A stretch of DNA of 64,000 nt from Raja brachyura (GCA_963514005.1 OY740820.1:13206001-13270000); one strand, 5' to 3'; positions 1 to 64,000 are shown, numbered from the stretch's first letter. Translations and numbers: made by a program. Notes: a model not told the origin generated them from the sequence alone.

Positions 1-967
1 CAATTTAAAATTCATATATATTTTTACCTTTACTCTAACAATATCCTCTTGTAATTTTGCAAACATGATGTTTAGAATAGGACTGGTGTTGTACTGAAGG
101 GCTGAGATTACATTGGGCCAAATTTAAAAAAAGATTTGCGTTATTTTTTATCTTTGTCTTTGTTACACCTACTTTGCCCAAAGTCTGGAACTACTGTTCT
201 TTGTAATGGTAGTTCATGTGTCTGTATTCATAATAAATCTGGTATGGAAAAGATTCAAAGAAAAGTGTTTCTAGTTGCTTTTAAACTTGTCGTTCTAGTA
301 AACAAAAGCTCAAAATTGATCTGTAGTTTTGAGGAGGAAGTTTACCAGAGATAGAACCCAATGCACAACGAGAGTTCATTCATAACAGTATAATCTTTGG
401 TACACAAGAATATGTAAATATTTATCGAGCCAAGCTATTTGATAGTGCGTGTTAAAAGGATATTAGATCATTGGCAAGACGATTGCAGCGCTCGGTGTAG
501 GTTGGTCAATAATTATGGGATGAGCTATTGTACTATGCATCTTGCACAAACTATTCGGTATTAGATGACACCCGAGGTAGTTACTGAGCAAGAGTCATCG
601 AGTCTTAAAGGAACTCTCATGTTATCTTTGTCTTCTGTTCTTCGTGAAATGAGATGTGAAATTATGAAATCATAAATATTTCTGCTATGTATTTTGGACT
701 TTATTAGCCTCATTGGTGACCCTCGGACTATCCTTGATCGGACTTTGCTGGCTTTGCCTTGCACAATGTTATTCCCTTATCGTGTATCCATACGCTGTAA
801 ATAGCTCGATTGTAATCATGTATTGTCTTTCCACTGACTGGATGGCACGCAACAAAACTTTTCACTGTATCTCAGTTAACGTGACAATAAACTAAACTCA
901 ACATAACTAATTGCTGACTGATAACAATTCAAATCAATTCATTATAAAATACATTACTGGATACCTG

Positions 968-1068
968 GGGTAGACAAAAATGCTGGAGAAACTCAGTGGG
1001 TGAGGCAGCATCTATAGAGCGAAGGAAATGGGCAAAGTTTCGGGTCGAGGCCCTTCTTCAGACCCTTC
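968..1068 (-). mobile_element. Solo Penelope terminal-repeat module with 13 bp TSD
   Basis: TACTGGATACCTG at 955-967 and 1069-1081. Confidence 0.8.
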
Positions 1069-1995
1069 TACTGGATACCTGAATTTGTCGAGTTCTAAAT
1101 GTTTAGAAATATTATTTTCTTAAGAATGGCTTTCACAGTATAGACCATATATTTTTCAGTGAGGTATTCAGTCTGTCGTGGGGTGGTTGGAAGTACCCAG
1201 GGAGGGTTAACTGGTAACTTCCCGATAGTGGATCCCCTAGTAGATTGACTACTTTCCCTGCAGGTAATTGCAGATACCAGTTTGTGAGTTTTCCTTGTGA
1301 CAGAAGCGCGCCTTATGTTTGATGGTCACCCAGAGACTACAATTGTTGGTACGAGTCTTTATCACATTTCTAAACCATTCTGGGGTTTTTTGTCTCCTAA
1401 CCAGTTAAATTGTGCTAATGCTGAAATGCTATCTTCAAAGTTCCAAGATTTCAAGTAATGATACTGAATGACTACTACTGAAATGACCAATGAATTTTGA
1501 TGCTTTCCAATTTTAAATTAAGTTCAAGTACAACAAATAAGCAATTGTTACCTTTTTTATGGATTTCAAAATTCAGTTTCAAAAAGTGACTTTTCTGCTT
1601 CGATCTAGAATATAGTTACTCTTTTACTGAAATGATGACCAAATGCATTGTATGTGGGAGAACAGTGACTGTAGAAGTAGTAGCTCAACTGTGTTGTTGA
1701 CCTATCCATACAGTAGCATGATGTGCTTGATTGTTTTCCATACATAAGAGTAATACTCTTTTCCAAGAGCAGACTATTTCAGGAAATAAATAACTTGCTG
1801 GTCTGCAAGTGTGCAAGTTTATATTTAACTCATCTTTAATTATTTTGTTCAAGAATGTTTTCATCCAGAAGTTTTAGCATTCTGGTATTATGTTATAGCT
1901 TCATGATGAATTGTGCTTTCTTGAAGTACGAGTGAATTCTTTAAATATTAAGTTTGTCTTACCAGATAAGATTAAAAAAGAATACTTTTATGACT

Positions 1996-2216
1996 GAAGA
2001 TAGACACAAAATGCTGGAGTAACTCAGCGGGACAGGCAGCATCTCTGGAGAGAAGACAATGGGTGACATTTTGGGTTGAGACCTTTCTTCAGACTGGTCT
2101 CGACCTGAAACGTCACCCATTCCTTCTATCCAGAGACGCTGCCTGTCCCGCTGAGTTACTCCAGCATTTTGTATCTATCTTTGGTGTAAACCAGCATCTG
2201 CAGTTCCTTCCTATAC
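1996..2216. repeat. Palindromic (head-to-head) Penelope terminal-repeat module
   Basis: gatagacacaaaatgctggagtaactcagcgggacaggcagc ... gctgcctgtcccgctgagttactccagcattttgtatctatc. Confidence 0.8.
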
Positions 2217-4008
2217 ATACTTGTATGACTTCTGGATGTCCCAAATGTCATTTTAAGCACCGCTGCAGTGCAGTGAAATAACAAGAGGAAATAAGGTAGA
2301 CACAAAATGCTGGAGTAGCTCAGAGGGACAGGCAGCATCTCTGGAGAGAAGGAATGGGTTGAGACCCTTCTTCAGTCTGAGTTACTGCAGCATTTTGTGT
2401 CTACCTTTGATTTAAACCAGCATCTGCAGTTCTTTCTTACACATAAGAAACAAAGCACAGTTTGAGTAGAGCAAGCATTAAAATTAAGAATCACATTAGA
2501 GTGCATTGATTAAACAGGATGAAAAAAGGAATAGAATGGTGGACATTGTACTTAGTTATGTGCAGGTAGACTCACATTTGCCAAGTTGGAAGGTGTTCAG
2601 ACATCTACACTTTCAATTTAGTCAGAGTTTAATTTGGTTTGTATGTACAGTAAGGTCGGTAATAACCATTTTGTAAGAACTGTTACTGTTGTATTAACAT
2701 ATTTAACATATGTTGCACGATTTGTGGATAGGCTCTAAATTCAAGTTCCCACCAAGACTCATCACGTTGGCTTTGCTTAAATCAGTACTCTGTGAAAGAG
2801 AGTCAGTTAACCTTTTCACAGGCAAGATGATGAAGTTTGATTGATTGACTTTTGGGACCTGAAGTGAAACTCCTCGGTTTGTTTCTTCCTGCAGTGAGTA
2901 CACATATCAAAATCTTGAACCCTAATTAAATCTAGAATGTGAAACTTCTTCCTCTGCAAAATTGTCAACAACTAATCAGGACCTACGCTGCTCAAGAATG
3001 ATGAAGTGTGAAGAAGGATCCCGACCCTAAATGTCACCTGTCCATTTTCTCCAGAGATGCTGCCTGACCCGTTGAGTTACTCCAGCACTTTGAGTCTATT
3101 TCTATGATTGGCACTTCACCTTGCAAGTTGTTTCAACTTCTGTTAAGTTGTTTCATTATCTGTTCATGGTAAGACGCAGCTCTAGATATTGTGGAATGAA
3201 GGGGTCTTTATCCAGAATGCACAGCAGTAGTGAAACCGTTCTCTGTGGTATTTGGTGTTTGCTTCTGTGGCTAGATTGGCTTCTGTGCTATTAAGAACAC
3301 CATTAAGAAGTTCTACCATTCCATTGAAACCTTGAACAATACTGCAATAACCATTTTGAAAATAAATATATCTGCAAGATAAAAGTAGCTTATGCCAGTC
3401 GATTGGGTGACATTTATTTACAGCTTTCCACATGTGTTTATAGATGCAATATTAATCCATGTCTTGTGTTGTACCTACTTCTAGCAGCACGTCTATTGAC
3501 ACCTATTCAGAATGCTACTTGTGTATTGACACTATCACATTGTTCATGAGAAGTAGCTCTCCTGGGTTTACCCTATATACACCTTTGAGTTTTCCTGCCA
3601 GAATAAGAGGAAAATATAGACTTAGTTCTTAGACCATCCTTTCACTAGAATTATCAAAAGACAGAATTACTGTATTAGTTTGGAATAATTAGGTATTTGT
3701 CTTTTGTAATGTGAGCATCGTTGGCAAGCCCTGCATTTATTGCTCGTCCTTAATTGCTTTTGAGTCTGCATCTTTGCAACCAGTGTGTTCCCTCTGGTGA
3801 AGGTGCTCCCACAATTTATTTACTTGCAAAAAATAAAACTCCACGTTTCTGTATGTTTTTTGAAGCTGCACAGCATATTCCCAGTTGGAGTACAAGAGTG
3901 TGAGGAGCCAGAGTCTCCAAAACAAAATTAATGCCAAGAGGTTGCAATCTAAATGATTTGGGCATTTAGTCACTTGTAATTGTTCACTGCTTAACTGTGT
4001 ATAAATTA

Positions 4009-5852
4009 CAGTGCCCTCCACAATGTATGGGACAAAGACCCATCATTTATTTAGCTGCCTTTGTACTCCACAATTTGAGATTTGTAATAGAAAAAAAATC
4101 ACATGTGGTTAAAGTGCACATTGTCAGATTTTAATAAAGGCCATTTTTTATACATTTTGGTTTCACCATGTAGAAATTACCGCAGTGTAAATACATAGTC
4201 CCCCAATTTCAGGGCACCGTAATGTTTGGGACACAGCAATGTAATGTAAATGAAAGTAGTCATGTTTAGTATTTTGTTGCATATCCGTTGCATGCAATGA
4301 CTGCTTGAAGTCTGAGATTCATGGACATCACCAGTTGCTGGGTGTCTTCTCTGGTGATGCTCTGCCAGGCCTGTATTGCAGCCATCTTTAGCTTATGCTT
4401 GTTTTGGGGGCTAGTCCCCTTCAATTTACTCTTCAGCATATAAAAGGCATGCTCAATTGGGTTCAGATTGGGTGATTGACTTGACCACTCAAGAATGGAC
4501 CATTTTTTAGTTTTGAAAAACTGCTTTGTTGCTTTAGCAGTATGTTTGGGGTCATTGTCTTGCTGTAGAATGAACCGCCGGCCAATGGGATTCAAGGCAT
4601 TTGTTTGAACTTGAGCAGATAGGATCTATGCACTTCAGAATTCATTATGTTACTACCATCAGCAGTTGTATCATCAATGAAGATAAGTGAGCCAGTACCT
4701 TCAGCAACCATACATGCTCAGGCCATAACACCCCCACCACCGTGTTTCACAGATGAGGTGGTATGCTTTGGATCTTGGGCAGTTCCTTCTCATCTCCATA
4801 CTTTGCTCCTCATATAACTCTGATATAAATTCATATTTGTCTCATCTGTCCACAAGACCCTTTTCCCGAACTGTAGTTGCTCTTTTAGGTACTTGGCAAA
4901 TTGTTAGCTGGACATCCTATTTTTGCGGCTAACCAGTGGTTTGCATCTTGCAGCGTAGCCTCTGTATTTAGAAACATAGAAATTAGGTGCATGAGTAGGC
5001 AATTCGGCCCTTCGAGCCTGCACCACCATTCAAATATGATCATGGCTGATCATCCAACTCAGTATCCCGTACCTGCCTTCTCTCCATACCCTCTGATCCC
5101 CTTAGCCACAAGGGCCACATCTAACTCCCTCTTAAATATAGCCAATGAACTGGCCTCAACTACCCTCTGTGGCAATTTCTGTTCATTAAGTCTTCTGCGG
5201 ACAGTAGTCATTGACAAATCCATACCTGACTCCTGGAGAGTGTTTCTGATATGTCGGACAGGTGTTTGGGGATATTTCTTTATTATAGAGATAATTCTTC
5301 TGTCATCAGCTGTGGAGGTCTTCTTTGGCCTGCCAGTCCCTTTGTGATTAGTAAGCTCACCAGTGCACTCTTTCTTCTTAATGATGTTCCAAACAGTTGA
5401 TTTTGGTAAGCCTAAGGTTTGGCTGGTGTCTCTAACAGTTTTATTCTTGTTTCTCAGTCTCATAAAGGCTTCTTTGACTTTCATTGGCACAACTTTGGTC
5501 TTCATGTAGATAAACAGCAATAAAAGTTTACAAAGGTGATGGAAAGACTAGGTGCTGAGAGATCTCTTATACCTGCATTAAGGAGGCAATTAAACACACC
5601 TGAACAATTACAAACACCTGTGAAGCCACGTTTCCCAAACATTATGGTGCCCTGAAATGGATGGACTATGTATAAACACAGCTGTAATTTCTACATGCTG
5701 AAACCAAAATGTATAAAAATGGCCTTTATTAAAATCTGAAAATGTGCACTTTAACCACATGTGATTTTTTTCTATTACAAATCTCAAATTGTGGAGTACA
5801 GAGGCAAATAAATAAATGATGGTCTTTGTCCCAAACATTATAGAGGACACTG
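4009..5852 (-). mobile_element. Decayed Tc1/mariner DNA transposon (DD34E) with about 225 bp IR/DR-type terminal inverted repeats
   Basis: TA|CAGTGCCCTCC at left, ...GGACACTG at right. TIRs 4009-~4235 and ~5630-5852. ORF 4266-4595 has QQDNDPKH...SPNLNPIEH with 34 residues between D and E. ORF 5059-5520 has the HTH region. Confidence 0.93.
4969..5174 (-). mobile_element. CR1-type LINE 3' fragment nested in the Tc1 transposase
   Basis: LPQRVVEASSLAIFKRELDVAL C-terminus plus 3' tail and (CTATGTTT)-type end, matching copies at 14447 and 50245. Confidence 0.88.
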
Positions 5853-7295: not shown

Positions 7296-7902
7296 ACATG
7301 GTGGTGCAGCGGGAGACTTGCTGCCTTACAGCGCCAGTCACCCAAGTACGACCTGACTGCGGGTGCTGTATATACGGAGTTCATACCTTCTTACTTCCCA
7401 GTGATCGCAAGGGTTTCCTCCTGATGCTCTGGTTTTCTTCCACATTCCACAGACATGCAGGTTTTGGCTTCTGTAAATTGTCGCTGGTGTGTAGGATAAA
7501 ACTAGTTACCAGGAGATTGTTGAAATGGACTTTAGTTTTAGTTTTGGTGTTACAGCGAGGAAACAGGCCCTTTCGGCCCACCCGGTCCGCGCCGACCAGC
7601 GATCCCCGCACATTAACACTATCCTATACCCGCTAGGGACAATTTTTACATTTACCAAGCCCATTAGCCTACATACCTGTAAGTCTTTGGAGTGTGGGAG
7701 GAAACCGAAGATCTCTGAGAAAACCCACACAGGTCACAGGGAGAACGTACAAACTCCGCACAGACAGCACCCGTAGTCGGGATCGAACCGGGGTCTCCGG
7801 CGCTGCATTAGCTGTAAGGCAGCAATTCTACCGCTGCGCCACCGTGCCTACTTTGTGGGCTGAAGGGCTAGTTTCCACGCTGTGTCACAAAACTAAACTA
7901 AA
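7296..7902. mobile_element. V-SINE (HE1-like), + strand, interrupted by a second V-SINE on the - strand (about 7531-7848)
   Basis: tRNA-like head GGTGGCGCAGCGGTAGA...GGTTCGATCC, central GGAGTTTGTACGTTCTCCC..GGTTTCCTCCCACACTCCAAAGAC, (CTAAA)n tail; the outer copy's tail resumes at 7849. Confidence 0.82.
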
Positions 7903-12870: not shown

Positions 12871-12957
12871 AGATGTGTGGCGATCTCATTAATGATTTAC
12901 ATCAGTCAAAATATTCAGCTTCATGAAGGTTAGTAGTCGGTAAATTATTTACTTAAT

Positions 12958-13400: not shown

Positions 13401-13565
13401 CCAAAGGGTTGTGCATGCAGCCCAGTTCATCAAGCAAATTATTTATTTTCTCTTTTGCACTGCCTGGTGTTCTCATGTAGGGTATGATTTGACTGGATAG
13501 CACGCAAAGTGCAGATTTTCATCATTATCTCTCTACACATGACAACAATAAACCAATGCCCCTGT

Positions 13566-13798
13566 TTAAGGAGGAACTGCTGGAAAATCGAAGGTTGACA
13601 AATTGCTGGAGAAACTCGGCGGGTGAGGCAGCATCTATGGCATGAAGGAAATAGGCAACGTTTTGGGTCGAAACCCTAAAGGGTTTCGACCCGAAACGTT
13701 GCCTATTTCCTAAAGGGTTTCGACCTGAAACATTGCCTATTTCCTTCACTCCATAGCTGCTGCCTCACCCGCTGAGTTTCTCCAGCATTTTTGTCTAC
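13566..13798. repeat. Palindromic Penelope module with TSD and an internal 34 bp tandem duplication
   Basis: ACCAAT(G/A)CCCCTGT at 13552-13565 and 13799-13812. Confidence 0.82.
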
Positions 13799-13929
13799 AC
13801 CAATACCCCTGTCCTCTTTCTCAATGCTTCAGTTAGGCCACCGTGCCCTTGGCTTATATAAGTTGAAGTTGCAGTGTCATCGTCTGCTTTAGAATTTCAA
13901 TAGCTTTTCTCTTTCAAAAACGTTTTTAG

Positions 13930-14209
13930 CATCGATACCCCCGGCGTGATTAGCCGCGTTTCCCAGCTCTTCAAAGGGCACCCTGACCTCATCATGGGCT
14001 TCAACACCTTCCTGCCTCCGGGCTACAAGATTGAGGTGCAGACCAATGACATGGTGAATGTGACGACACCCGGCCAAGTCCATCAGATCACTCCCCAGCA
14101 CGCGGCCCAGCCCCAGAGTCAGCAGCAACACCAGCAGCAACCACAGCAGCACGCTGCGCCTGCACCGGCACAGCCAGCACCACAACCGCCACCTGCCAAA
14201 ATCGCCAAG
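13930..14209 (+). CDS. SIN3A: SIN3A coding exon 4, PAH1 C-half plus Q/P-rich linker
   Basis: [35 protein letters not shown]; tttag| and AAG|gtaag; 280 nt. Confidence 0.96.
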
Positions 14210-19537: not shown

Positions 19538-19632
19538 AGCGATTGATTATAAGAGAGGTCACTTTATGGATGCGCTTTTGATGTCACGGAAATAGAATGT
19601 TGCCGTATTTCCATGATTGATCATTATTATTA

Positions 19633-19866
19633 GGAAGAAGGGTCTCGACCCGAAGCGTCACCTATTCCTTCGCTCCATAGATGCTGCCTCACCCGCTGAG
19701 TTTCTCCAGCATTTTTGTCTACCTTCCATTATTATTAGGAAGCAGGTTCTCCACCCCGAAACGTCACCTTTCCAATTTCTCTAGAGAAACTGCCTGATCC
19801 GTTGAGTTACTCCAGCATATTGTGTCTATCTTCGGTGTAAACCAGCATCTGCAGCTCCTTCCTGCA
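19633..19866 (+). repeat. Two Penelope terminal modules in direct tandem
   Basis: Units about 19633-19726 and 19738-19866, delimited by three CATTATTATT copies. Confidence 0.78.
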
Positions 19867-20221
19867 CATTATTATTGGGATCTGGGATCTCATTTCTAAG
19901 GATTTGCATAAAGGCCAATGTTGCGGGCGAACCATCACTACTTTTGTGTCAGTGGAGAGCATTCCTGAAGAAATACCATTTATAGCTTCTGTGATATTTC
20001 TCTAAATGAAAGAAAAAAACAGCCACATCAAAGGCAAAGCACCAATTGACTAATAATTAGAAATGCAGATAACGGCCTACAATTTAGTAAGTAGACGAGA
20101 ACAAGTCAATTGAGTTTGTGCCCCGCCCAGAGTTGGGATAACAAGTTGATTGATAGATTTTGCAGCACTGTTTTTGGGATTTTAGCAAAACTTCGTTCAT
20201 TTTGCTTTTACATCCTTGCAG

Positions 20222-20473: not shown

Positions 20474-20601
20474 GTAAGAAAACTCACAGCATTTCAAGCC
20501 TTTCCCTCACCCTAGTGTTAACAGCCGCAGGAAAATATTTTGTTGTCTTCCTTTTTGTTCGTCCCTTTCACTTTGTATATCAATGTAACTCCTTATCTAT
20601 T

Positions 20602-20790
20602 TAGACACAAAATGCTGGAGTAACTCAGTCGGACAGGCAGCTTCTCCAGAGAGAAGGAGTGGGTGACGTTTTGGGTCGAAATCCTTCTTCTGACGAAAGG
20701 TCTCGACCTGAAAGATCGCCCGTTGCTTCTCTCCCGTGATGCTGCCTGTCCCACTGAGGTACTCCAGCATTTTGTGTCTTTGGTGTGAAC
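20602..20790. repeat. Palindromic Penelope terminal module
   Basis: Inverted arms; core CTGACGA-AAGGTCTCGACCT-GAAA at 20690. Confidence 0.75.
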
Positions 20791-21524
20791 ATCTATTTAT
20801 ACTTCTTTCCATCTTGTCCTGTTTTATTTCTCTCTTTTCAATTTAATTTGTATTTTGCAGCTCGGTGTCTGGCGATTTTGTTTTGATGTTCTTCAGATTT
20901 TTCTTTCGTGTGGCGTGCACAGCCTAAAGTGGTTGGACAACTTGTTCTATTTGACCTTCCATTTGTGCACGTCGAGTTGATTGCATTAGTCGAAACAGGG
21001 CAGACCAGGTGCAGGTTGCAATCTTCCACCCCGTTCTTTAGATGAATGGAGAAAAGAATACCCCATCCCATGTTACGAGTGGCAAGCTGAGCACATGCGT
21101 GTGATCAGTACCTCTTTTGGTGGCTGGGATAGTTATTCATTGTGTCGCCATGAATCCTAGAGGGCAGCCCCTCTCACACAGCCCTTCATTAATACAATTT
21201 CTCAGCCGTACATTTACATCTTTTCCAATGTGATACTAAAATCAATAACGTCAGGAAAGATAGAGGGGGAGAGAGATGCAAGGTACATTTTGATGTGGGC
21301 AACTGGATAAAAGCAAAAAAAATAATAAGAGGGTATATAGATACGCAGAACCCCCTCTTTACTTTGGCCCGTATTGATGAGGGGGTCTGAAGATGGGTCC
21401 CGAACCAAAACGTCACCTATCCATGTTTCCAGAGATGCTGCCTGACCTGCTGACCTCCAGCACTTTGTGTCCTTTAACGAGCGGCTGTCTCTTTTCTAAG
21501 ATGCTTTAAATATTTTTGCTATAA

Positions 21525-25092: not shown

Positions 25093-25094
25093 AT

Positions 25095-25642
25095 TGGCCT
25101 ACACGATGTCCCACTTGCCAAACATTTGAACACCCCTTCCCACTACCATTTTGACCTGGGCTCCTCCACTATCAGAGTGAGGCCCGGTGTAAATTTGAGA
25201 AACAGCGCCTCATATTTCACTTGGGCAGCTTTCACCCCAGCGGTATGAATATTGACTTCTCTAACTTCAGGTAATCCTTGTTTTCTCTCTCTCCCCATCT
25301 CTCCCCCCCCCCCCCCTCCCTCCTTCCTAGTTCTCCGACCAGTCTGACTGCCCCCTTGATTAAATCTCAGCTCTATTTGCTCCGATATCACCTTCCCCAT
25401 AGCCAACAATGATCTATTTTACATTTTCCTTTAGCCACATCCCCTTTGATGTCTCATTCTCACACCTGACACTTCCTTATCTCCGTGTCTCCCCCTCCCC
25501 TAACTCTCAGTCTGAAGAATGGTCTCGACCCAAAACATCACCCATTCCTTCTCTCCAGAGATGCTGACTGCCCCACTGAGTTACTCCAGCATTTTGTGTC
25601 TATCTTCGGTGTAAACCAGCATCTGCAGTTCCTCCCTACACA
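25095..25642 (+). mobile_element. Penelope-like 3' fragment (GIY-YIG C-terminus plus terminal repeat)
   Basis: LAKHLNTPSH...; ctcatatttcacttgggcagc...ccccagcggtatgaatattgac is homologous to 46050-46100; ends in the terminal module. Confidence 0.8.
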
Positions 25643-25949: not shown

Positions 25950-27159
25950 GTGACTCAAATCAGTGAATTAAAGGAAGATGATTTGCTAAATCGTTCACCA
26001 TTGCTATTAATGTAAAATTTCCATGCCTCAAGGGCGTTAAACCAAAGCTATATTCTCGAAAGAAGCTGTGGGCATGGAACTGCATTAAAAATGTAAAGCA
26101 TAACAGTACAGCACTGGAACGGGCTCTTCAACCCACAATGTTTGTGCCAAACATGACGGCAGGTTAAACTGATCTCATCTGCCTGAACAGTGGGAGAGTC
26201 TAGGACTCGAGGTCATAGCCTCAGAATTAAACGACATTCTTTTAGGAAGATGAGGAGAAATTTATTTGGTCAGAGGGTGGTGAATCTGTGGAATTCTTTG
26301 CCGCAGGAGGCTGCGGAGGCCAAATTAGTGGATATTTTTAAGGCATAGATAGATTCTTGATTAGTACAGGTGTCAGAGGTTATGGGGAGAAGGCAGGAGA
26401 ATGGGGTTAGGAGGGAGAGATAGATCAGCCATGATTGAATGACGGAGTAGACGATGGGCCAAGGGTCTCGACCCGAAACGCCGCCCATTCCTTCTCTCCA
26501 GAGATGCTGCCTCACCCGCTGAGTTACTCCAGCAGTTTGTGTCAACCTTCGGTTAAAACCAGCATCTGCAGTTCTTTCTTACGCACCAGAATGAGAGGGC
26601 ACTGGTTTAAGATGCGAGGGGTGGTGCAAACAGAATCTGAGGGGTACTTTTTTTCACACGGGGGATGGTAAATATTTGGTTCGGGTAGCCAGAGGAGGTA
26701 GTGGAGGCATATTTATATTCTATTACAAAATTTAAAAGGTATTTTGACAGGTACGTGGATAGGAAAGGAGTAGAGGGAAGTAGGTCTAATGCAGGCAAAT
26801 GGGTAAGCATAGATAGGCAGCATGGTTGGCATGGACAAAGTGGACCGTAAGGGCCTATTTTCTGTGGTGTACTGTATGTTTTCATGATTCTCTGTAAAAG
26901 TTTTCCTATGGAATTACTTTTTTTTTTAAATTTGGATTGATAGGACTTGCTTGGATTGTTGTGGGTGCTTCAATTGAACGTGAAACGACACACAACTCCT
27001 AGTTGTAATATTCCAACATTTCGTAATAAATCATTTCATAAATTTGGAATCATCCAATCATCCAAGCTTTATTAAACAGCCGATTATGAGAAAAGACAGC
27101 GACAGACTTCACCTGAATGGGATTTGTGTGCATTTGGGAAGGTAGGGGACTGCTCAGTA

Positions 27160-27572
27160 AATGGAGGACAGGACAGCACCTCATATTTCGCTTGGGCAGC
27201 TGACTCCCCAGCAGTACAAATACTGATTTCTCCAATTTCAAGTAACCCTTGCTTTCCCTCTCTCTCTGTCCCTCCCCCATCCTAGTTTTTATTGTCCTCC
27301 TGATTAAATATTACTGATTGTATGCCTCGTTGTCACCTTCCCCTCAGCTAACTGTGAACCATTCTACATTTCCTTAATCACCATCCCCTTTGATCTGTGT
27401 TTTCACACATTACCCTTCCATATCTCTCTGTCTCTCTCTCCCCTTGCTCTCACCGAAGAAAAGGATCTCGAGCCGAAACTTCTCTCCAGCAATGCTGCCT
27501 GTCCAGCTGAGTTACTCCAGCATTTTGTGTCTATCTTCGGTGTAAAACAGCATCTGCAGTTCCTTCTTACAC
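27160..27572 (+). mobile_element. Penelope-like 3' fragment
   Basis: cagcacctcatatttcgcttgggcagc followed by the terminal module; homologous to 25200-25640. Confidence 0.75.
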
Positions 27573-27699
27573 AAATGGAGGACGTGGCTGCCTGCTGCAT
27601 TGATGAGGCCCTTGCTCTTAAGAACTTTCATTCAACTTCTAACCATATAACAATTACAGCACGGAAACAGGCCATCTCGGCCCTTCAAGTCCGTGCCGA

Positions 27700-31521: not shown

Positions 31522-31607
31522 TCATTCTCCAAACAGGTTATCAAAGTAAGGTTTTGTAAGTTATTTCAGAGATAAAGTGGCACTGGCTGGATATGTATGA
31601 ACATAGG

Positions 31608-32005
<398 letters not shown>

Positions 32006-42020: not shown

Positions 42021-43184
42021 AATTAAACAACTTTTCAATATTTTTTAGTTCTGTCTCCAGACATGATAGCAAGGTCAGATTGGCCAGGCTAGGCAGGATC
42101 ACCGTCTGTTTATTCAGAATGAAGTTGCACTTCCTCGCTCACCGTAGCGGCAAATACGGACCATTTTACAAGTAACAAGTCCAAATGCTATGTTTGTTTT
42201 CTGGAGTCAAGCACGGAGAGCAGGCATAGATGTTCAGTGTTTTTCTTCATGAATAATAATTGGAAATAACAAAAGACTGCTTGTGTTAAATAAGTTGACC
42301 TATGGTTGTAGGTCGGGATGATTTATTTATGAATGCATTGTTGCATGGTTAAGCTGCATTGATTGCACTGACTGAGTGTAATCACAATTGATTCTCTGTT
42401 TACCTTGTGGCGAAAGAAAGCTGTTTATTGATTCACATCCAACCTTGTCTGATGAAGCATCTGCTCAACTGTTTCCAGTGAGACTCAAGAAGCACATTTA
42501 TGCAAGATAGGAACAAGTAGTAGATATTGCACATTGTCAGGAAAGCATTATGAATCAACTCCCATAAAATTAATGCACTTGATGTGTGTGGCACTGAGTA
42601 CGTGTCCCCATGCTTGAATGCTTTAAACAGCATTGAACATATTTAAAATCGCAGCATCTTCCATTATACATATTTTACCCATCAGTGACGCATAAAATAA
42701 AATCCGTTCTAAACTGCAATTAGTTTGGAGATATAAAGAATTGCAGATGCTGAAATCTTGAATAAAGCACAAAGTGTTGGAGTAACTCAGTGTGTCAGGC
42801 AGCATCTGTCGGGGGGGAATGAATAGCAACGTTTGGGTCAAGATACTTCTTCAGACTGATTTATTAGTTTAATATTTTCTTTTGCATGTTCTTTTATTTA
42901 TTTTACTATGTGGTGTCACTTCACATGATACTTGTACAATCACCACTAACATTTTAGCAGTCAGTTAATATCCGATGAGCATTGGGGACACATTTGTCTG
43001 CTGGTGCTGGAATCCTGAGCAAAAAACTAACTGCTGGAGGAAGTCAGTGGGTCAGGCAACATCTGTGGAATGAAATGAAGGAGGGACCCCACCTGAAACA
43101 TTGTCTGTCCGTTTGCTTCCATGGATGTTGGCTGATCCATTGAAGATCCTTCAGCAGTTTTTTTTGCATTGGGAACAAATTGTT

Positions 43185-45430: not shown

Positions 45431-45774
45431 GTAAGCTGTCACCGGTTGGAACACTTCTGTCCCTGCCGAAGCCTTGATCTGAATGTTATCTGAGTGGATA
45501 TTTCTGCCCTCTCTGCTCATTGTTGGGGACTGCATTGGAAAGTCAGCAACTGTTGTACGAAGCAACTTTTGGACACAAAGTAATCTGGTGAAGCACAACC
45601 ATTGGGGCACCATAACTCAACGGAGCTGGTCGGGTAGAAAGGCAAATTGGAAATTGTGAGGGGCAGGGATGGTGTGTGTGAAGGAAATTGGTGGAATAGG
45701 GTGAGGAGCCTAACGTCCAGAATTGTCCCACCACTGCACTATTTGTCGCTTTACCCCCCCCCCCCCCCCCCGAC

Positions 45775-46345
45775 TCCATCCAAGGACCCAAGCAGTCTTT
45801 CCAGGTGCGGCAGAGGTTCACCTGCACCTCCTCCAACCTCATCTATTGCATCCGCTGCTCTAGGAGTCAACTGCTCTATATCGGTGAGACCAAGCACGGG
45901 CTTCACCCAACACCTCCGCACAGTTCGCATTAACTAACCCGATCTCCTGGTGGCTCAGCACTTAAACTCCCCCTCCCATTCCGTATCTGACCTTTCTGTC
46001 CTGGGCCTCCCCCATGGCCAGAGTGAGTCCCACTGCAAATTGGAGGAGCAGCACTTCATATTTCGCTTGGGTAGTTTACACCCCAGCGACATGAACTTTG
46101 ACCTCCAATTTCAGGTAGTCCTTGCTTTCTCCCTCCTTCCCCTCCCCTTCCCAGCTCTCCCACAGCCCACTGTCTCCGCCTCTTCCTATCTTCTTCCCCC
46201 CCCACCCCACATCAGTCTGAAGAAGGGTCTCAACCCGAAAAACATCACCTATTCCTTCGTTCCATAGATACTGCCGCACCCGCTGAGTTTCTCCAGCATT
46301 TTTGTCTACCTTCCAATTTCCAGTATCTGCAGTTCTTTCTTAAGC
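45775..46345 (+). mobile_element. Penelope-like retroelement 3' end: GIY-YIG endonuclease remnant plus terminal repeat
   Basis: Hand translation QGPKQSFQVRQRFTCTSSNLIYCIRCSRSQLLYIGETK...VAQHLNSPSHS...KLEEQHFIFRLGSLHPSDMN, then pyrimidine tract and the ctgaagaagggtctc... module. Confidence 0.88.
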
Positions 46346-46451
46346 ATTAGTGAAGGTCTTGCTCAACCATGAGGTGTGTCTGTCACACGTTCACCAGGTT
46401 TTGTTTCTGCTTCTTTTCTGGTTCCTTATCCAGATCATATTGTGGCACAGG

Positions 46452-46636
46452 TAGACAAAAGTGCTGGAGAAACTCAGCGGGTGCAGCAGCATCTATGGAG
46501 CGAAGGAAATAGGCAACGTTTCGAGCCGAAACGTTGCCTATTTCCTTCGCTCCATAGATGCTGCTGCGCCCGCTGAGTTTTCCCGCACTTTTATCTACCT
46601 CCGATTTTCCAGCATCTGCAGTTCCTTCTTAAACAC
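46452..46636. repeat. Palindromic Penelope module with 13 bp TSD
   Basis: ATTGTGGCACAGG at 46439-46451 and 46637-46649; near-perfect inverted arms. Confidence 0.85.
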
Positions 46637-46749
46637 ATTGTGGCACAGGCCATGATTGCTTATCCTGCCCTTAAATTTCTAATGTAATTTTGAAATCTAA
46701 AAACATATTTGAAACCTATTCTCACCTTTTTGTGATTTGCTCTTTTCAG

Positions 46750-46923: not shown

Positions 46924-47625
46924 GTAAGTGTGTTCAAATATTCCTCCCTCATTGTTAGCAGCTCTTTCTAAATGACCTCTCGGAAGTTGTGGCAGGGAAT
47001 GAAGAAAGTGGCACCTGAATGGATTTATGATTAGCAATTTGGGAATCTCCCCTCTTCCTTAATTCTGTTCTGTGCAGTCCATTTATTTCTGCCCTAAGGT
47101 TTGAGCCACAATGTATAAGAAGGAACTGCAAATGCTGGTTTATACCAAAGATAGACACAAAAAGCTGGAGTAACTCCGGGGGTCAGACAGCCTCTCTGGA
47201 GAAAAGGAACAGGTTAGGTTTCAGGTCAAGATCCCCCTTCAAATTGAGGGAAAAGTAACGTTTCGGGTCGAGACATCACCTAGTCTTTTTCTCCAGAGAT
47301 GCTGTTTGACCTGCTGAGTTACTCCAGTTTTTTGTGTCTATCTTTGAGCCAAAAAGTATTAACTTTTCCAGTTTTATTTTTAATACTTTTGATGAGGACG
47401 TAGAGGGGAAAGTATCCAATTCACGTTTGTTTATGGATGGGACAAGGGAGGTGGGCTTTTGTATGCTAGTAAAGGTTTTATTATCCTGTTGAAAAAAAGA
47501 CATTTGCTGGATGTGTTGTCAGATCAAATATATTAGTCGCATATATATTATACTTATATAAGTATGCAGGAATTATGTATACTAAAACCACTCAACTCTG
47601 TAATGTTCCTATCCTTTGCTTCCAG

Positions 47626-50805: not shown

Positions 50806-50879
50806 TCGTGAATCAGATTTGTTGTTATTATCTAGGTTTTCGTATTTTGATGAAGCTTGGATGCGTTAAAATTCAGATG

Positions 50880-51911: not shown

Positions 51912-52270
51912 GTAAGGGTGCCCTGTTCACTTCCTAGATCAAGTCCTACATAACCACAAGCAGATAATCAAGTAATTATCATTTTGGTGTTGTGGAAGTT
52001 CATACGTTGTTGGAGCAGATTTAGGCCATTCGGCCCATCAAGTCTACTCCGCCATTCAATCACGGCTGATCGATCTTTCCCTCTCAATCCCATTCTCCCG
52101 CCTTCTCCCCCCATCCCATCACACCCGTACTAATTTAGAATCTGTCAATATCCGCCATAGAAATATCCATTGACTTGGCCTCCGCAGCCGTCATTTTGTT
52201 CTGTGTAAATTGAGTCCTGCATTATATCAGTGACTAAATTTAAATCAGCTTCTGGCTATAAAATGGAATG

Positions 52271-52492
52271 TTTAAGAAGGAACTGCAGATGCTGGAAAAT
52301 GGAAGGTAGACAAAAGTGCTGGAGAAACTCAGTGGGAGAGGCAGCATCGATGGAGCGAAGGAAATAGGCAACGTTTCGGGCCGAAACCCTTCTTCAGACT
52401 GGAGAAGGGTTTCGGCCCAAAATGTTGCCTATTTCCTTCGCTGCATAGATGCTGCTGCACCCACTGAGTTCCTCCAGCACTTTTGTCTACCT
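52271..52492. repeat. Palindromic Penelope module with exact 14 bp TSD
   Basis: TATAAAATGGAATG at 52257-52270 and 52493-52506. Confidence 0.87.
52370..52397 (-). ncRNA. Candidate minimal hammerhead ribozyme core
   Basis: Minus strand reads CTGAAGA-A-GGGT-TTCG-GCCC-GAAA-C-GTT, i.e. CUGANGA, stem II with UUCG loop, GAAA, palindromic ACGT and UH. Activity not shown. Confidence 0.6.
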
Positions 52493-52583
52493 TATAAAAT
52501 GGAATGACCTGAAGTTGTGGCAAGCACCATATAAATGCAAATCATTCTTATTGGTTAATAGTACACCATTATAAAGGACTTAA

Positions 52584-53439: not shown

Positions 53440-54016
53440 CTACAAGGTTAATTCCCGGGATGGCGGGACTGTCATATGCTGAGAGAATAGAAACATTGAC
53501 ATAGAAACATAGAAAATAGATGCAGGAGTAGGCCATTCGGCCCTTCGCACCTGCACCGCCATTCAATATGATCATGGCTGATCATCCAACTCAATATGGG
53601 GCAGCTGGGCTTGTACACTCTGGAGTTTAGGATGAGAGGGGATCTCATTGAAACATATAAGATTGTTAAGGTGTTGGACACGCTAGAGGCAGGAAACGTG
53701 TTTCCGATGTTGGAGGAGACCAGAACCAGGGGCCACAGTTTAAGAATAAGGAGTAAGCCATTTAGAACGGAGACAAGGAAACACTTTTTCTCACAGAGTG
53801 GTGAGTCTGTCAAATTCTCTGCCTCAGAGGGCGGTGGAGGCAGGTTCTCGGCTTTCAAGAGAGAGCTAGATAGGGCTCTTATATAGCAGAGTCAGGGGAT
53901 ATGGGAGAAGGCAGGAGCGGGGTACTGATTGAGAATGATCAGCCATGATCACATTGAATGACGGTGCTGGCTCGAAGGGCCGAATGGCCTACTCCTGCAC
54001 CTATTGTCTATTGTCA
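53440..54016 (+). mobile_element. CR1 LINE 3' fragment containing an antisense CR1 tail insert (about 53487-53595)
   Basis: TRLIPGMAGLSYAER / QLGLYTLEFRMRGDLIETYKI, separated by a reverse-complement tail. Confidence 0.8.
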
Positions 54017-54399: not shown

Positions 54400-54465
54400 G
54401 TCAGTGCACTCGTTACAGGCTCCGCGTATCTTTTGAGGATACAAAAAGCAAGATGATGTGTTTAG

Positions 54466-54678
54466 GGAGACAAAAATGTTGGAGAAACTCAGCGGGTGAG
54501 GCAGCATCTATGGAGTGAAGGAAATAGGCAACGTTTCGGGTTGAAACCCTTCTTCAGACTGTTTTGACCCAAAACGTTGCCTATTTCCTTCACTCCATAG
54601 ATGCTGCCTCACCCGCTGAGTTTCTCCAGCAGTTTTTGTCTACCTTCGATTTTCCAGCAACTGCAGTTCCTTCTTAAA
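54466..54678. repeat. Palindromic Penelope module with 17 bp TSD (1 mismatch)
   Basis: CAAGA(T/G)GATGTGTTTAG at 54449-54465 and 54679-54695. Confidence 0.85.
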
Positions 54679-54689
54679 CAAGAGGATGT

Positions 54690-54945
54690 GTTTAGTTTAG
54701 TTTAGAGATACAGCGCAAGAACAGGCCTTTCGGCCCATCGTGTCCGCGTCAACCAGTACTAGCGCTATCCCACACTAGGGACAATGTACAATCTTTACCA
54801 AAGCCAATCAACCTTCAAACCAGTACGTCTTTGGAGTGTCCCAGAGCACCCAGGGAAAACCCACATGGTTACATTGAGAACATACAAACTCCCTGCAGAC
54901 AGGATTGAACCGGGGTCTGGTGCTGTAAGGCTGTGTCGCCCACTG
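54690..54945 (-). mobile_element. V-SINE (HE1-like), internally deleted
   Basis: (TTTAG)n, tail and V-domain in reverse complement. Confidence 0.72.
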
Positions 54946-56117
54946 CACTGTGGATAATGGGAACCAGACATCTAAAAGCAACCGATATTGGGAGGTCCAG
55001 AGTTTCAGGTTGGACATTTTAGCTATAAAAGATTATGCTCCCACCCTTAGATGAAGCTTGAATGTTTCTGCCTTCCATTGGGTATGTTAGTAAGATTGCC
55101 TTATACCTGCTCCGGTGGTAAATAAAATGATGGCTGATCTTTTACCTCAGCACCATTTTCCTGCACTATCCATTGTTCCTTGTTTTCCTTAATATCTAAA
55201 AATCTATCAAAATCTCTCTTGTCCTACCCTGATCATTTCCTCCTTCTCCGCCCTGTTCCTGCCTGACAGAAGGTACAAATGCTTGAGAATGCGCACCACC
55301 AGGAACAGCTTCTTCCCCTCTGTTATCAGACTTCTGAACGGTCCTTCCACAAGCTAGGATATTGTCCGATTCACCTCCACCCCATTGAGGACATTGGACT
55401 TCCGGTACTAAAGAGTTAAAGGGTTACACAAAAAGCTGGAGAAACTCAGCGGGTGCAGCAGCATCTAAGGAGCGAAGGAGATAGGCAACGTTTCGGGTCG
55501 AGGCCCTTCTTCAGACTGGATGTCTGGTACTGTTGCGCTACAATGCTGAAAACTATATTCTACACTCTGTATCCTCCCCTTTGCCCTATCTAATGTACTT
55601 GAGTTTGACTTTATTGTAGTTATCTACAGTTTATTTGATCTGTTTGAAAAAGGCTTTTCATTGTACCTAAACCTTAATCTAGAATGTACTCAAAAACCGA
55701 GCCTCTTCTATCAAAGAGGTTTATAAGTGAAAACATTTCTTCTTATCCCTCTCCTCATGTCCAAACCTTTATTTTGAGCATGTAACCGGTTTTGGACATG
55801 ACAGCCAGGGATATCATCAATCCAGTGTTTATCCTGGCATGATCCATACCAATTTTGTCTGGTTTTGTTATCTTATTTAGCATTCAGATAAACTAGAGAG
55901 AGAGTATAGCCAGTCTGTTTAACCTCTCCTCATCCAATGAACCTACCACCCCAGGAGCTTCAAAAAAGACACAAGTGGGAAATGATAGGCTGAAAATATT
56001 TATTGACTGCTTGTTCACCCCAACCATCACCCAGAGCCAAGTGCATTTTGTCCTGCACATTGAAAATCTTACCTTGGTGTTGGTGTTAACTGGCTTGTCT
56101 CATGAAACTCAATTCTT

Positions 56118-56189
56118 CGTCGCCTATCTCCTTCGCTCTTTAGATGCTGCTGCACCCGCTGAGTTTCTCCAGCTTTTTGTGTAACCCCC
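56118..56189 (+). repeat. 72 bp solo Penelope module with 13 bp TSD
   Basis: AAACTCAATTCTT at 56105-56117 and 56190-56202. Confidence 0.8.
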
Positions 56190-56231
56190 AAACTCAATTC
56201 TTTCTCTGATTGTGTAAGTTTCATGGGTATT

Positions 56232-59508: not shown

Positions 59509-59667
59509 AATTTGGATGGAGATCAAAGATCATCTCCGTTTGCGTAAGAATATCTGGTATACAAATATTGTGAAATATCAGGGAGTACAAATCAAAGTAA
59601 AGACAGATTTTAGAATCATCAGTTGCACCACATGATCAGTGCAGTGACTTGAATTAAAGATTGCAAT

Positions 59668-59990
59668 GTGTAGGAAGGAACGGCAGATGCTGGCTTATAC
59701 CGAAGATGGACACCAAATGCTGGAGTAACTCAGCGGGACAGGCAGCAACTCTGGATAGGAATGGGTGACATTTCAGGTCAAGACCCTTCTTCAGGCAGAG
59801 TTAGGGAGAGGGAGACACAAAAATGGAAGGGTAAGGTGTGAAGATGAGGCATCAAAGGGGGTGATGATCAAGAAAAATGTAGCATCGATCATTGCTAGCT
59901 AAGGGCAGGTGATAATGAAGTATACAAATATAAAATTTAATCCGGACAGTCAGTCTGGTCAACAAACTGGGTTGTGGGAGGGATGGAGAG
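59668..59990 (-). mobile_element. Penelope-like 3' fragment
   Basis: Reverse complement of the 25320-25640-type tail. Confidence 0.7.
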
Positions 59991-60967
59991 AATATTGAAA
60001 TATTTGGGCAATAAAGGAAAGCTGGAGCAGAGTAGAATGTTTTGATTTAATGCCTTTGGCTGTGAGACTTCTCTCATGATCAGAAAATCATTTTCACCCT
60101 TTTTTTTATTTTTTTGCAGACTGAGGGCATCGCTGACAAGGCTGTCACTTAATTGTCCAGGCCTAATTGTCCTCTGGAGGATAATAGATAGCCTGATTTG
60201 TGAACCACTACAGTCTATGTGGTGATGGTACACCCCCTGTGCTCGCGGATGAAGAGTTAGACATCAAAAGCTGGAGTAACTCAGCGGGACAGGCGGCATC
60301 TCGGGAGAACGTTTCAAGTCTGATGACCCGAAAACGTCACCCATTCCTTCTCTCCAGAGATGCTGCCTGTCCCGCTGAGTTACTCCAGCTTTTTGTGTCT
60401 ATCTTAGTGCCCTGACTTATGATTCGTACGTTCATATGTTATGGGCCATTCAGCCCCATCAAGTCTACTCTGCCATTTAATCGTGGCTGATCTATCTTTC
60501 CCTCTCAACCCCATTCTCCAGCCTTCTCCACATAACCCCTGACACCCGTATTAATCCTGAATAGTGATGGGAGAATGAGAATGAGACAGTTCTACTGTTG
60601 TTGGCACCCAGCACCAGATGTGTTAATCCAGACATAAGCCACTGCAGATGCTAATTCAGTTTGCCAGTCTAGATAAATTAAAATCCCCTCTGATTTTTAT
60701 ATTAGCCTTGTTACATGGAACACTATTTGCCTAATGTATACAATACCCAACATTATTAATAGCGTTTGTTGTCCGATGTATCATTTGCATCAGAGACAGG
60801 TGATAAAATAAAAACATTGAACACAAGAGGGAGTCTGTGCACTTTGTGCAGGCACTTTGAACTGCAGAATTGTGTGATGGATGGGTCTCGGACTACAATG
60901 AAATGATGAAAGGAGATAGCTAAATTAAAAAATTGTAAGGAAGGTTTTAGTTGGACCTGTAGCTCTA

Positions 60968-61678: not shown

Positions 61679-61699
61679 GAATGGATGAACCACGAAGGG

Positions 61700-62030
61700 G
61701 CAAGATAGACACACAATGCTGGAGTAACTGAACGGGTCAGGCAGCAACATCCCTGGCGAAAAGGAATAGATGATGTTTCAGGTCGGAACGCTTCTTTAGA
61801 CTGAAAGCCGAGGTGGGGGCATGGGTGGGGTGGGGTAACTGGGGGACAGGAAAGAGTTACTTGAAATGAGAGAAATCAACATTCATACTACTGGGTTATA
61901 AGCTGACACTCTGACAGTGGAGGAGGCCCAGGACAGAAAGGTCAGTGTGGGAATGGATAGGGGAATTCAAATGTTTGGCAATGTTAGATCGTGTAGGTCA
62001 AGGTAGGCGAAAAATGCTCAGCTAAGTCTA
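61700..62030 (-). mobile_element. Penelope-like 3' fragment
   Basis: Terminal module plus reverse complement of the GIY-YIG C-terminal coding stretch (gacctttctgtcctgggcctcc). Confidence 0.7.
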
Positions 62031-62269
62031 CCCTTAATATGCATCTATTAACATATCTTAGAAACAAGGAACTGCAGATACTGGTTTACTAAAATATGAG
62101 AGACACAAAGTGCTGGAGAGCTCAGTGGGTAATGCAGCATCCCTGGAGAACATGGTGACAATATTAAACTAAACTAAACAAAGGCGACATTTCAGGTCGG
62201 GATCCTTCAGTCCAGAGCTACAGGTACAACTAAAACCTTGCTTACAGCAGCATCACAGGCACAGACTTA

Positions 62270-62545
62270 TGCCCCTGTCCCACTTAAGAAACTGAACGGA
62301 GACCTCTGGAGACTTCGCGCCCCACCCAAGCTTTCCGTGCGGTTCCCGGAGGGTTTTGTCAGTCTCCCTAATGGTCGAAGGTGGTTTCCACTTCTTCTAT
62401 GTTCCGGCGATTATTTGAAAAAATTCAAAACCGTCCGCGACTAAAAATAGGTTGCCGTTTTAAAAATCGGTGATTTTTTAGTCGAAGCCGGTTGCGATGC
62501 TATTTGAAGGTGGTTGCCGGAGGTTGCAGGTAGTGGAAGGTAAGA
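62270..62545. mobile_element. Probable Harbinger-like MITE fragment
   Basis: Starts GCCCCTGTCCCACT, same terminal core as 36245 and 52584; CpG-rich; other end not found. Confidence 0.45.
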
Positions 62546-62691
62546 CCTTTTTTTCACCCAGTTTTATTCCACCAGGGAGGTCTTACCTTTAATTAATGTA
62601 AAACACAATTAGAAATAGAAATCTTCAAAAACGTAGCTGGGCTTTGTCTATATGCACATCCAGTGTATATGCTGGGCCCAGGATCATCAGA

Positions 62692-62774
62692 AGGGTCTCG
62701 ACCCGAAACGTCGCCTATCTCCTTCGCTCCTTAGATGCTGCTGCACCCACTGAGTGTCTCCAGCCTTTTGTGTA
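62692..62774 (+). repeat. Solo Penelope module with 15 bp TSD (1 mismatch)
   Basis: CCCAGGAT(C/T)ATCAGA at 62677-62691 and 62775-62789. Confidence 0.8.
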
Positions 62775-64000
62775 CCCAGGATTATCAGACATGGGAGCAG
62801 TAGTGGGAGGTTGAAGACCAGCTGGTTGGTCCACACATGTCTTTTAGTACTGGGCTAGTTACACCGTACATAGAACAAATGAATGAAAAGTATGAAAAAG
62901 GACAAATCAAAGCCAGCAATGATGATCAAGGAAAGGTGGAGCCCACACATCTCAGGAGAAAAGTACTTCAAAAGGTGTAGGAAGGAACTGCAGATGCTGG
63001 TTTATACACATTGTAGACACAAAATGAGTAACGCAGCGGGACAGGCAGCATCTCTGGAGAGAAAGAATGGGTGATGTTTTGGATCGAGACCCTTCTTCAG
63101 ACTTGGACATTGGTCGGGAGGGATAGGATGAAGTAGAAGTATGTGGAAAATAATTCAGGAGCAGGCAGTACTTAGAAAAAGTTCACTTTACACAAATTAA
63201 CTTCTGTGTGGTCAAATATTTGTGTGTTCGAATGGTGTCATTGGAGGATTGTGTGTTTGGAGTTTAGGTGGGTGAAGGAGTGGCTGGCTGTGGGGAGGAG
63301 AGAACGGCTTAGAAGGAGAGCAAAGTTCCACAGAGTCGGAGCAGATTGCACTGATTTGGCATTGAGCAAGGTCACATCCTCAGTGGTTGTAAAACTTCCT
63401 ATTCCGGTTGTGCAAACACAACAATGATTTAGCAAAGCAAATATCTAGGACGATTGCAGAGCTGGAATTGTTATTGTGAATCCAGTGAGGAGTGAGGGAA
63501 GGGGAGCTCTGAACTACATAGACTATTATAGTTATTATTTAGTGCAAACTAATAATTGTTAAGTAATTATTGTTTGTTTGATTCTATGTGTTCATATGTA
63601 TGTGTATATGCTTACATATGTATGTATAGGAAAGAACTGCAGATGCTGGTTTAAATATATATAAATATATAATGTATAAGGTAGACACAAATTGCTGGAG
63701 TAACTCAGCGGATATGTAGGTATGCTACAAAACTTACCTTCAGCAGCGCTGCAGTTCTGTCACTGGCCGTGTGCGCGACTTTGGCGCCTTTGGGGGTGGG
63801 GGGGGGCGGGGTTAAAATGCGGTTTTCCACTGCCTTCCGGAGTTTTATTTTCTCGGGGTGCGAGCTTTTGCTGAAGATTTGTTCCGACTGCAGGTCTGTG
63901 AATTTTATTTTTTTAATTACCCGACAATTTCAGCGCTGGAGTAAAATAAAAATTAGCTTCTAATGCCGTGAATGCCGACAACGGGGACGGACTTCACGTA

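Follow-up and report, generated by a model that had tools for sequence, protein, structure and literature searches.

Introduction

Penelope-like elements (PLEs) that possess an endonuclease (EN+ PLEs) are known to carry an inverted pseudo-long terminal repeat (pLTR) and a tail of 30–40 bp on one side only, and to be accompanied by target-site duplications (TSDs) of 8–10 bp and solo pLTRs (Arkhipova et al. 2013, PMC3846280; Craig et al. 2021, PMC8557442; here and below, papers are cited for the portions of their text that were available). In A. vaga Pen2a, a 15-bp overlap was found at the inverted junction (PMC3846280). In this study, we analyzed a stretch of 64,000 nucleotides from Raja brachyura (GCA_963514005.1 OY740820.1:13206001-13270000, the whole of which is called the window), in which a short module related to the 3' end of a GIY-YIG PLE occurs many times, as single short insertions (stubs) and as head-to-head palindromes. 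A sequence-only reading of the window had described eight such insertions and offered two explanations, a non-autonomous, retrozyme-like family mobilised by a Penelope enzyme, or extremely truncated insertions with the inverted terminal repeat of Penelope elements. Our analysis supports the latter: the stubs and palindromes are probably one-off insertion products of autonomous Neptune-type PLEs and do not form a family of their own.

Three other systems are relevant. PAc, a Poseidon-clade PLE of Anolis carolinensis, has two internal reverse transcriptase (RT) starts downstream of its hammerhead, which define the tail (Frangieh et al. 2024, PMC11167929). For this element both target strands were cut and extended, targets were AT-rich and hammerhead cleavage was dispensable, and no reads ended at the hammerhead cut (PMC11167929). 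In the anole and rotifer elements, the segment from hammerhead to tail is the start of the open reading frame (ORF) (PMC11167929, PMC3846280). Minimal metazoan PLE hammerheads are mostly solitary and derive from truncated PLEs, with opposite-strand pairs 100–700 bp apart (Cervera & de la Pena 2014, PMC4209133). In non-LTR (long terminal repeat) retrozymes, units that each contain a hammerhead are arranged in tandem, head to tail (Cervera & de la Pena 2020, PMC7229834; Li, Clavereau & Pollet 2026, 10.64898/2026.07.22.740005). PMC8969392 and PMC12602865 contributed nothing decisive.

The module is the 3' end of a GIY-YIG element

Module positions are counted from the C of CTGAAGA, taken as 0. 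Read on the CTGAAGA...GAAACGT strand, the module makes up the final ~135 nt of a larger element. In four copies, the sequence extends upstream through a pyrimidine-rich spacer into DNA coding for a GIY-YIG C-terminus, and two further copies (59666 and 52734) have the spacer only. Longer copies, some including the untranslated region (UTR), are:

45772..46345, plus strand, longest copy: GIY-YIG C-terminus disrupted by a frameshift near 45900 and a stop at 45935, 3' untranslated pyrimidine tract, hammerhead-like motif from 46217, tail
27159..27583 (copy 27170-27572), plus strand, 400-bp copy: ORF end, UTR, module and tail; exact 11-bp TSDs at 27159 and 27573
25094..25641, plus strand, older subfamily: ORF end, UTR, module and tail
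61702..62001, minus strand: ORF end, shortened UTR and module with the short 3' end
59666..59991, minus strand, older subfamily: UTR, module and tail

The longest copy matched GIY-YIG proteins in tblastn (E 1e-35 to 1e-10), with E down to 8e-35 given for its segment 45772-46105, and the match of this segment to PF01541 (E=0.003) was below the cut-off. The closest-protein set comprised 35 matches among 41 candidates. These closest homologues combine GIY-YIG with a CX4CxxC-type linker, and one of them, P0001, also has RT-like motifs in the same chain, upstream of a stretch that is 79% identical to the window copy over 43 aa; P0068 combines a weak RVT_1 match with GIY-YIG. The linker (CX2-5CxxC) was seen in homologues P0001, P0002 and P0037, and the window copy begins just downstream of it. 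A protein search with the C-terminal 58 aa alone gave no match, and no RT-coding part of the element survives in the window. A CX2-5CxxC linker before GIY-YIG marks the Neptune/Nematis PLEs (PMC8557442). The module would accordingly be the 3' terminus of a PLE, probably of Neptune type to judge by the linker of the homologues.

The Penelope origin suggested earlier is supported by the contiguity of module and GIY-YIG ORF end in four copies. The statement that the insertions lack coding sequence holds for the eight insertions to which it referred, but not for the module as such, which is contiguous with GIY-YIG coding DNA in these four other copies. The longest copy carries the same terminal module as the young stubs, and the 11-bp TSD of the 400-bp copy is of the same class as stub TSDs. 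Features of EN+ PLEs found here include GIY-YIG linked to a terminal repeat, a one-sided tail, a head-to-head inverted copy, variable TSDs and a minimal hammerhead motif.

Altogether, the 39 intervals assigned to the family add up to 7,039 bp, or 11% of the window, at a density of ~0.6 loci/kb or one stub per ~1.6 kb, and stub arms outnumber long-copy arms by 48 to 6 among 54 arms. When sequencing-run contigs were aligned to the long copy (45775-46430), 70,737–100,189 contigs per run were found in four runs from four organisms, covering the ORF end, spacer and module but hardly the right flank. This shows a very abundant family in which copies linked to the ORF are common, with the provision that contig depth does not equal copy number. 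A pattern scan gave no match to the module in viral contigs, and all 26 matches in metagenomes were chance 19-mers without the module.

Target-site duplications

All eight direct repeats in the sequence-only reading are present, with the positions, lengths and mismatches claimed for them. In the order listed, the inserts between them measure 101, 233, 144, 185, 222, 213, 72 and 83 bp:

968-1068, minus strand, single module between exact 13-bp TSDs (955-967 and 1069-1081): 5' end at -2, with a short piece duplicated; short 3' end
13552..13812, palindrome: tail on the left arm (+7..+127), none on the short right arm (+6..+91); 14-bp TSD with 1 mismatch
31598..31761, palindrome: short arm on the left (+56..+93), tailed arm on the right (+19..+127); 10-bp TSD, 5 bases of which overlap the element end
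46439..46649, palindrome: short left arm, tailed right arm; 13-bp TSD
52257..52506, palindrome: the left arm is tailed and reaches -4, the right arm is short and begins at ~+3; exact 14-bp TSD
54449..54695, palindrome: the left arm is short and reaches -4, the right arm is tailed and begins at +10; 17-bp TSD with 1 mismatch
56105..56202, plus strand, single module 56118-56189 of a third young variant: 5' end ~+24, short 3' end; exact 13-bp TSD
62677..62789, plus strand, single module: 5' end ~+4, short 3' end; 15-bp TSD with 1 mismatch, overlapping both element ends

Compared with 1,500 random position pairs 70–240 bp apart under the same scoring, each repeat had p<=0.004. The list of eight, although real in every entry, was incomplete: a flush direct repeat (p<0.02) was present at 16 of the 39 family loci, including the 400-bp ORF-bearing copy, where ~1 was expected, and the window contains 14 palindromes. 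At several loci (e.g. 31598, 46439 and 62677) the repeat overlaps the element end by 1–5 bases, so that unambiguous TSD lengths are somewhat below the 10–17 bp first given. Across the family, TSD length is variable at ~9–17 bp, and TSDs are richer in AT than the window (64% vs 57%). Young arms differ by 3–7% from the consensus, so the insertions are probably present in close relatives as well.

Palindromes probably form at insertion

Junctions of 13 of the 14 head-to-head palindromes were mapped by script. Five of the eight reported insertions (13552, 31598, 46439, 52257 and 54449) are of this type, as had been recognized. Their apex had been placed at or next to the hammerhead-like motif, and nine of the ten arms do start within it (-4 to +25; the tenth at +56), but the apex is not at the cut site (+27/+28). 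Older palindromes include:

1982..2230, older subfamily, absent from the earlier list: the left arm is short and reaches -4, the right arm is tailed and begins at +9; 14-bp TSD with 1 mismatch
20595..20799, older: right arm with an intermediate end point (+104 to +107); 9-bp TSD
47100..47354, older: tailed left arm, short right arm, extra inverted central piece; 9–12 bp TSD
42979..43183, very old, another subfamily: ~17-bp degenerate direct repeat at 42979 and 43166, by eye

No two of the 13 script-mapped junctions are alike. They range from the 15-bp overlap of the 46439 palindrome, centred on the hammerhead stem II hairpin, to gaps holding template-jump pieces; the palindrome at 13552..13812 has a 34-bp direct duplication at its centre. 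Partner arms are 78–97% identical, of the same subfamily type and usually nearer neighbours of each other (rank 1–18 of 36–46, one pair having too little overlap). The two arms come from one event and one subfamily and have decayed independently since. Unique centres together with partner arms of one subfamily indicate that the mirror half was made at insertion and was not copied. The proposal that modules and palindromes move independently was interpretation only, and is not upheld by centres that all differ. In at least five palindromes (1993, 2293, 32766, 36983 and 54464), whichever arm extends further in the 5' direction stops earlier on its 3' side. Such non-nested arms, together with the two-strand extension seen in vitro, would favour priming at both nicks. 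No strand-change joint at the hammerhead was present among the 15 contig joints listed out of 369.

Two 3' ends define the tail

The 3' ends of the 54 module alignments fell into two groups, 30 at +85..+103 and 24 at +120..+131, with none in between; on inspection, four of the short ends were tailed copies with an internal indel. There are two fixed 3' ends (+88..+98 and +120..+131), ~33 nt apart, and the segment between them is the known PLE tail. Among the matches listed, loose contig ends were top-ranked at 46310-46313, the short end, in all four runs. Most palindromes (11 of 14) combined a tailed and an untailed arm, three lacked a full tail and none had two tails (p=0.035); for those bounded by TSDs the tailed/untailed combination was found in 8 of 9 (p=0.053).

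Both 3' ends flank the 3' strand of an 8-bp pairing between module body and tail. A proposed fold comprising stem II, this 8-bp stem into the tail and an inner hairpin pairs in 88% of cells, with covariation not beyond that of shuffles (86 of 500), and folding of single arms was no better than shuffles (z -1.1 to +0.1). The 8-bp complementary pair joins +48..+55 to the tail, and the copy 46213-46345 keeps it through a two-sided change. By hand, old and young tails were seen to differ by 3 nt between two repeated 6-mers.

A fixed 5' boundary near the hammerhead core

Positions of 5' ends were curated by hand from alignments of the 54 arms. Of these, 21 begin within +7..+73, 27 within -6..+6 and the remaining 6 far upstream. 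Among the 33 arms that reach +6, 27 stop by -6, i.e. within 13 nt, compared with 8.5% expected from the downstream rate. When only ends fixed by an apex or a TSD were considered, 17 of 18 stopped at the boundary (4 of 5 for TSD-bounded singles). No arm of the 54 starts at the predicted hammerhead cut (+28), and one by-eye estimate lies at ~+30. In addition, 4 of 12 contig-joint rows listed link the module 3' end to 46211-46215 (-6..-2). Uniform breakpoints had been named as the sign of ordinary random truncation; the sharp clustering of 5' breakpoints indicates that this simple account is also wrong. No publication on a fixed PLE 5' boundary or on skate PLE stubs was found in a search that missed most subscription papers, Repbase and supplements.

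The same boundary occurs in at least four subfamilies of different age. It coincides with the junction of a C-rich tract and TCAGT, a motif common to the four spacer types seen. TCAGT at this position fits the initiator consensus, and would fit a splice acceptor equally well. A donor-like GT is present at the stop codon in all four ORF-bearing copies (stops at 46113, 25271, 27242 and 61862). With this donor-like GT and an acceptor-like AG at -3/-2, the spacer could be an intron, as in D. virilis Penelope; by hand, the older-subfamily module was found open in the frame that such a splice would join. No spliced junction was present in the printed flanks of copies, and none of the 15 contig-joint rows listed of 369 was a GT..AG joint. 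The intron of D. virilis Penelope is 75 bp long and ends at helix I, and the start site precedes it by 46 bp (PMC4209133, PMC2377424). The stubs share no 5' flank.

Extra short direct or inverted module pieces lie at some 5' junctions (969-1068, 13677-13713, 47250-47272 and 60309-60324), and such pieces are typical of RT template jumps.

Hammerhead motif and Pol III boxes

Hammerhead descriptor features were taken from PMC4209133, and 7 of 8 descriptor matches in the window were family copies. A minimal core is exemplified by:

52370..52397, minus strand: CTGAAGA, extra A, stem II with a G-C closing pair, GAAA and palindromic ACGT; predicted cut after 52370

In copies with an intact core and natural flank, helix I has at most 2 bp and stem II 3–5 bp, so the hammerhead is probably weak or inactive. 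Rfam gave no hammerhead and no tRNA match, only weak miRNA matches. Hammerhead cleavage does not define the element ends. A head-to-tail array of hammerhead-to-hammerhead units was absent from the window. Its only tandem (19622-19866) has two coreless units parted by a target copy, and a few go-back joints occur in run contigs:

19622..19880, plus strand: tandem of two modules of different subfamilies, with the target repeat three times (19622, 19727 and 19867)

Here a young module lies at the 5' edge of an older one, the repeated target is ~13 bp and both units start at +2. This is a re-insertion at the edge of an older copy, and suggests that the new cDNA was joined to the old copy by homology.

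The absence of RNA polymerase III (Pol III) A and B boxes, also noted previously, is correct for exact boxes, but older-subfamily copies (e.g. 25508-25600 and 26461-26550) have antisense look-alikes of both boxes with one mismatch and a spacing of 52 nt, an arrangement that was noticed post hoc and occurred in 0 of 2,000 shuffles. The B-like box corresponds to the loop of hammerhead stem II read in the opposite direction, and these look-alikes may be incidental. A tRNA-derived short interspersed element (SINE) was rejected as a candidate: exact Pol III boxes and tRNA matches, in Rfam or otherwise, are lacking, and the near-boxes are antisense only.

Proposed mechanism and alternative explanations

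If the insertions are products of autonomous PLEs, they might arise as follows. The RT/GIY-YIG protein would cut the target with a stagger, and reverse transcription would start inside the RNA at either of the two sites flanking the tail, as for the anole element in vitro. Extension of one nick would give a single stub. Extension of both nicks, usually one per start site, would give two cDNAs of the same RNA segment pointing away from the target ends, and these may join at their 5' ends via self-complementary patches (the -4..+2 near-palindrome, stem II and ACGT) into a palindrome with one tailed arm. Most cDNAs end at -6..+6, which would most likely be the 5' end of the RNA, with its initiator-like TCAGT behind C-rich boxes. 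Starting in the 5' repeat copy of the transcript would lead to run-off after ~100–135 nt, and starting in the 3' copy to longer, ORF-bearing copies. The hammerhead-to-tail segment begins the ORF in the anole and rotifer elements and hence lies near the mRNA 5' end, so internal initiation would yield a short run-off product. Within this model, run-off at the RNA 5' end is the likeliest if tentative cause of the boundary. A strong RT stop at the pyrimidine tract or splice-acceptor-like site comes next, and what likelihood is left falls to junction-sequence effects or later deletion. It is somewhat doubtful that most short PLE insertions here are "strong-stop" run-off products with a capped end at ~-4 instead of truncated 3' ends of the element, and that some stubs have become self-propagating, RNA polymerase II-initiated SINE equivalents.

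Several observations weigh against this account. The D. virilis arrangement would make -2/-1 a splice acceptor and not a start site. Of 26 single copies, 19 lack a clear TSD; a UTR specific to a subfamily that escaped detection could therefore look like a boundary. Centres of DNA palindromes are known to be revised after insertion, so unique junctions could arise from one ancestral form. The tail asymmetry is statistically borderline at either p value, and alignments to the reference used for the runs are also halted by its private mismatches at 46314 and 46316. Finally, no intact autonomous partner was seen, the longest copy in the window being disrupted and only 574 bp in length, and no ORF-linked copy of the commonest young stub variant occurs there, with a single young long copy only.

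The last point would also fit a SINE-like, non-autonomous PLE derivative, in which some stubs starting at ~-4 are transcribed from there and re-mobilised in trans while palindromes still form at insertion. The sharp 5' boundary, the 48 stub arms against 6 long ones and the antisense boxes of the older consensus agree with this idea, and internal RT initiation removes the need for a defined RNA 3' end; trans-mobilisation by the pLTR alone has been reported (PMC3846280), and non-autonomous Chlamys PLEs exist (PMC8557442). However, the boundary is common to at least four subfamilies, each old type having UTR- or ORF-linked copies; contigs from each of the four organisms give heavy coverage of the ORF and UTR parts of the young long copy, as far as depth, which is not copy number, can tell; and the stubs have neither upstream C-rich boxes nor a common 5' flank. 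We regard such a derivative as distinctly unlikely. Self-priming by a single strand that folds back at internal palindromes, a mechanism put forward for rotifer PLEs, is likewise unlikely to take the place of two-nick priming. It would account for the stem II overlap at 46439 and for the 52257 junction, centred on the -4..+2 near-palindrome, and PMC3846280 interprets such junction palindromes as self-priming, but it needs the second arm to lie within the first. The non-nested palindromes do not conform to this, although they are not decisive, as later central deletions could explain them.

The retrozyme-like family that had been put forward, in which hammerhead self-cleavage frees unit-length, possibly circular RNAs for re-insertion by the PLE enzyme, is very improbable. 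A minimal core is present, a PLE pLTR origin and monomer derivatives of retrozymes have been reported (10.64898/2026.07.22.740005) and the few head-to-tail contig joints point the same way, but the window has no tandem array, helix I has at most 2 bp in natural context, Rfam gave no hammerhead match, and none of the 54 arms starts at +28. The units span pre-core to tail sites instead of cut to cut, and the common doublet is head-to-head, not head-to-tail. As for MITE-type DNA transposons (miniature inverted-repeat transposable elements, with terminal inverted repeats), short, palindromic, non-coding copies in high number do resemble these, but the earlier argument for retrotransposition is supported: TSDs vary from 9 to 17 bp, arm ends are unequal, single-arm copies have TSDs and the module is contiguous with a GIY-YIG ORF, which leaves a MITE origin with negligible probability.

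Genomic context

The family loci sit between exons of a SIN3-family gene on the plus strand:

13904..14200, plus strand: exon with SIN3-family PAH domain
near 20300, 31850, 38050, 40281-40860 and 45240: further SIN3A-like exons

The palindrome 31598-31761 lies ~100 bp upstream of a SIN3A-like coding exon, and intronic hairpins of such size could form double-stranded pre-mRNA. By eye, we also noticed frame fragments resembling Tc1/mariner transposase (4266-4625 and 5059-5547, minus strand), frames resembling the C-terminus of CR1-type long interspersed elements (17249-17785, 27643-28404, 31086-31439, 50435-50812 and 53572-53886) and a second short repeat family with many copies, probably SINEs (e.g. 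7531-7847, 12562-12871 and 51146-51444). A module fragment at 63616-63723 has a (TA)-rich insert within its tail and is bordered by a 12-bp repeat that lies in an ATGT-rich patch.

Comparison with known systems

Both PMC11167929 and PMC3846280 treat the way in which PLEs make inverted repeats, tails and TSDs as an unsettled question. At one stub per ~1.6 kb, the genome would offer thousands of junctions to distinguish two-nick priming from fold-back, and an RNA start from other causes of the boundary. If most insertions were strong-stop products, the genome would be a high-copy record of PLE integration intermediates, mapping the start site, both RT starts and the cut stagger. For annotation, hairpins of 100–230 bp are mistakable for MITEs or microRNA precursors.

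With non-LTR retrozymes, the insertions share small size, lack of coding sequence, relation to a pLTR, a type I hammerhead motif and TSDs longer than 4 bp, but they are dispersed singles and head-to-head pairs and are not bounded by the cut site. Minimal PLE hammerheads have in common with the present motif CUGANGA plus an extra base, G10.1-C11.1 and palindromic 15.2-16.2 (PMC4209133); helix I has 2 bp here compared with a typical 4–5 (2 in D. virilis; PMC4209133), and stem II has 3–5 bp here. Unlike PAc, the element here probably has a Neptune-type linker, and the available text of the PAc paper describes neither palindromic stubs nor run-off at a fixed point. EN+ PLEs are the closest match, with a head-to-head inverted, 5'-truncated copy, a tail on one end and palindromes or overlaps at the junction. 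In contrast to published EN+ PLEs, the whole insertion here is usually one or two terminal repeats (72–233 bp), and where the available EN+ PLE papers describe variable 5' truncation, 5' ends here pile up at one site. Since the architecture is that of published PLEs, our finding is not a new class; the sharp 5' boundary is the unexpected feature beyond published PLE traits.

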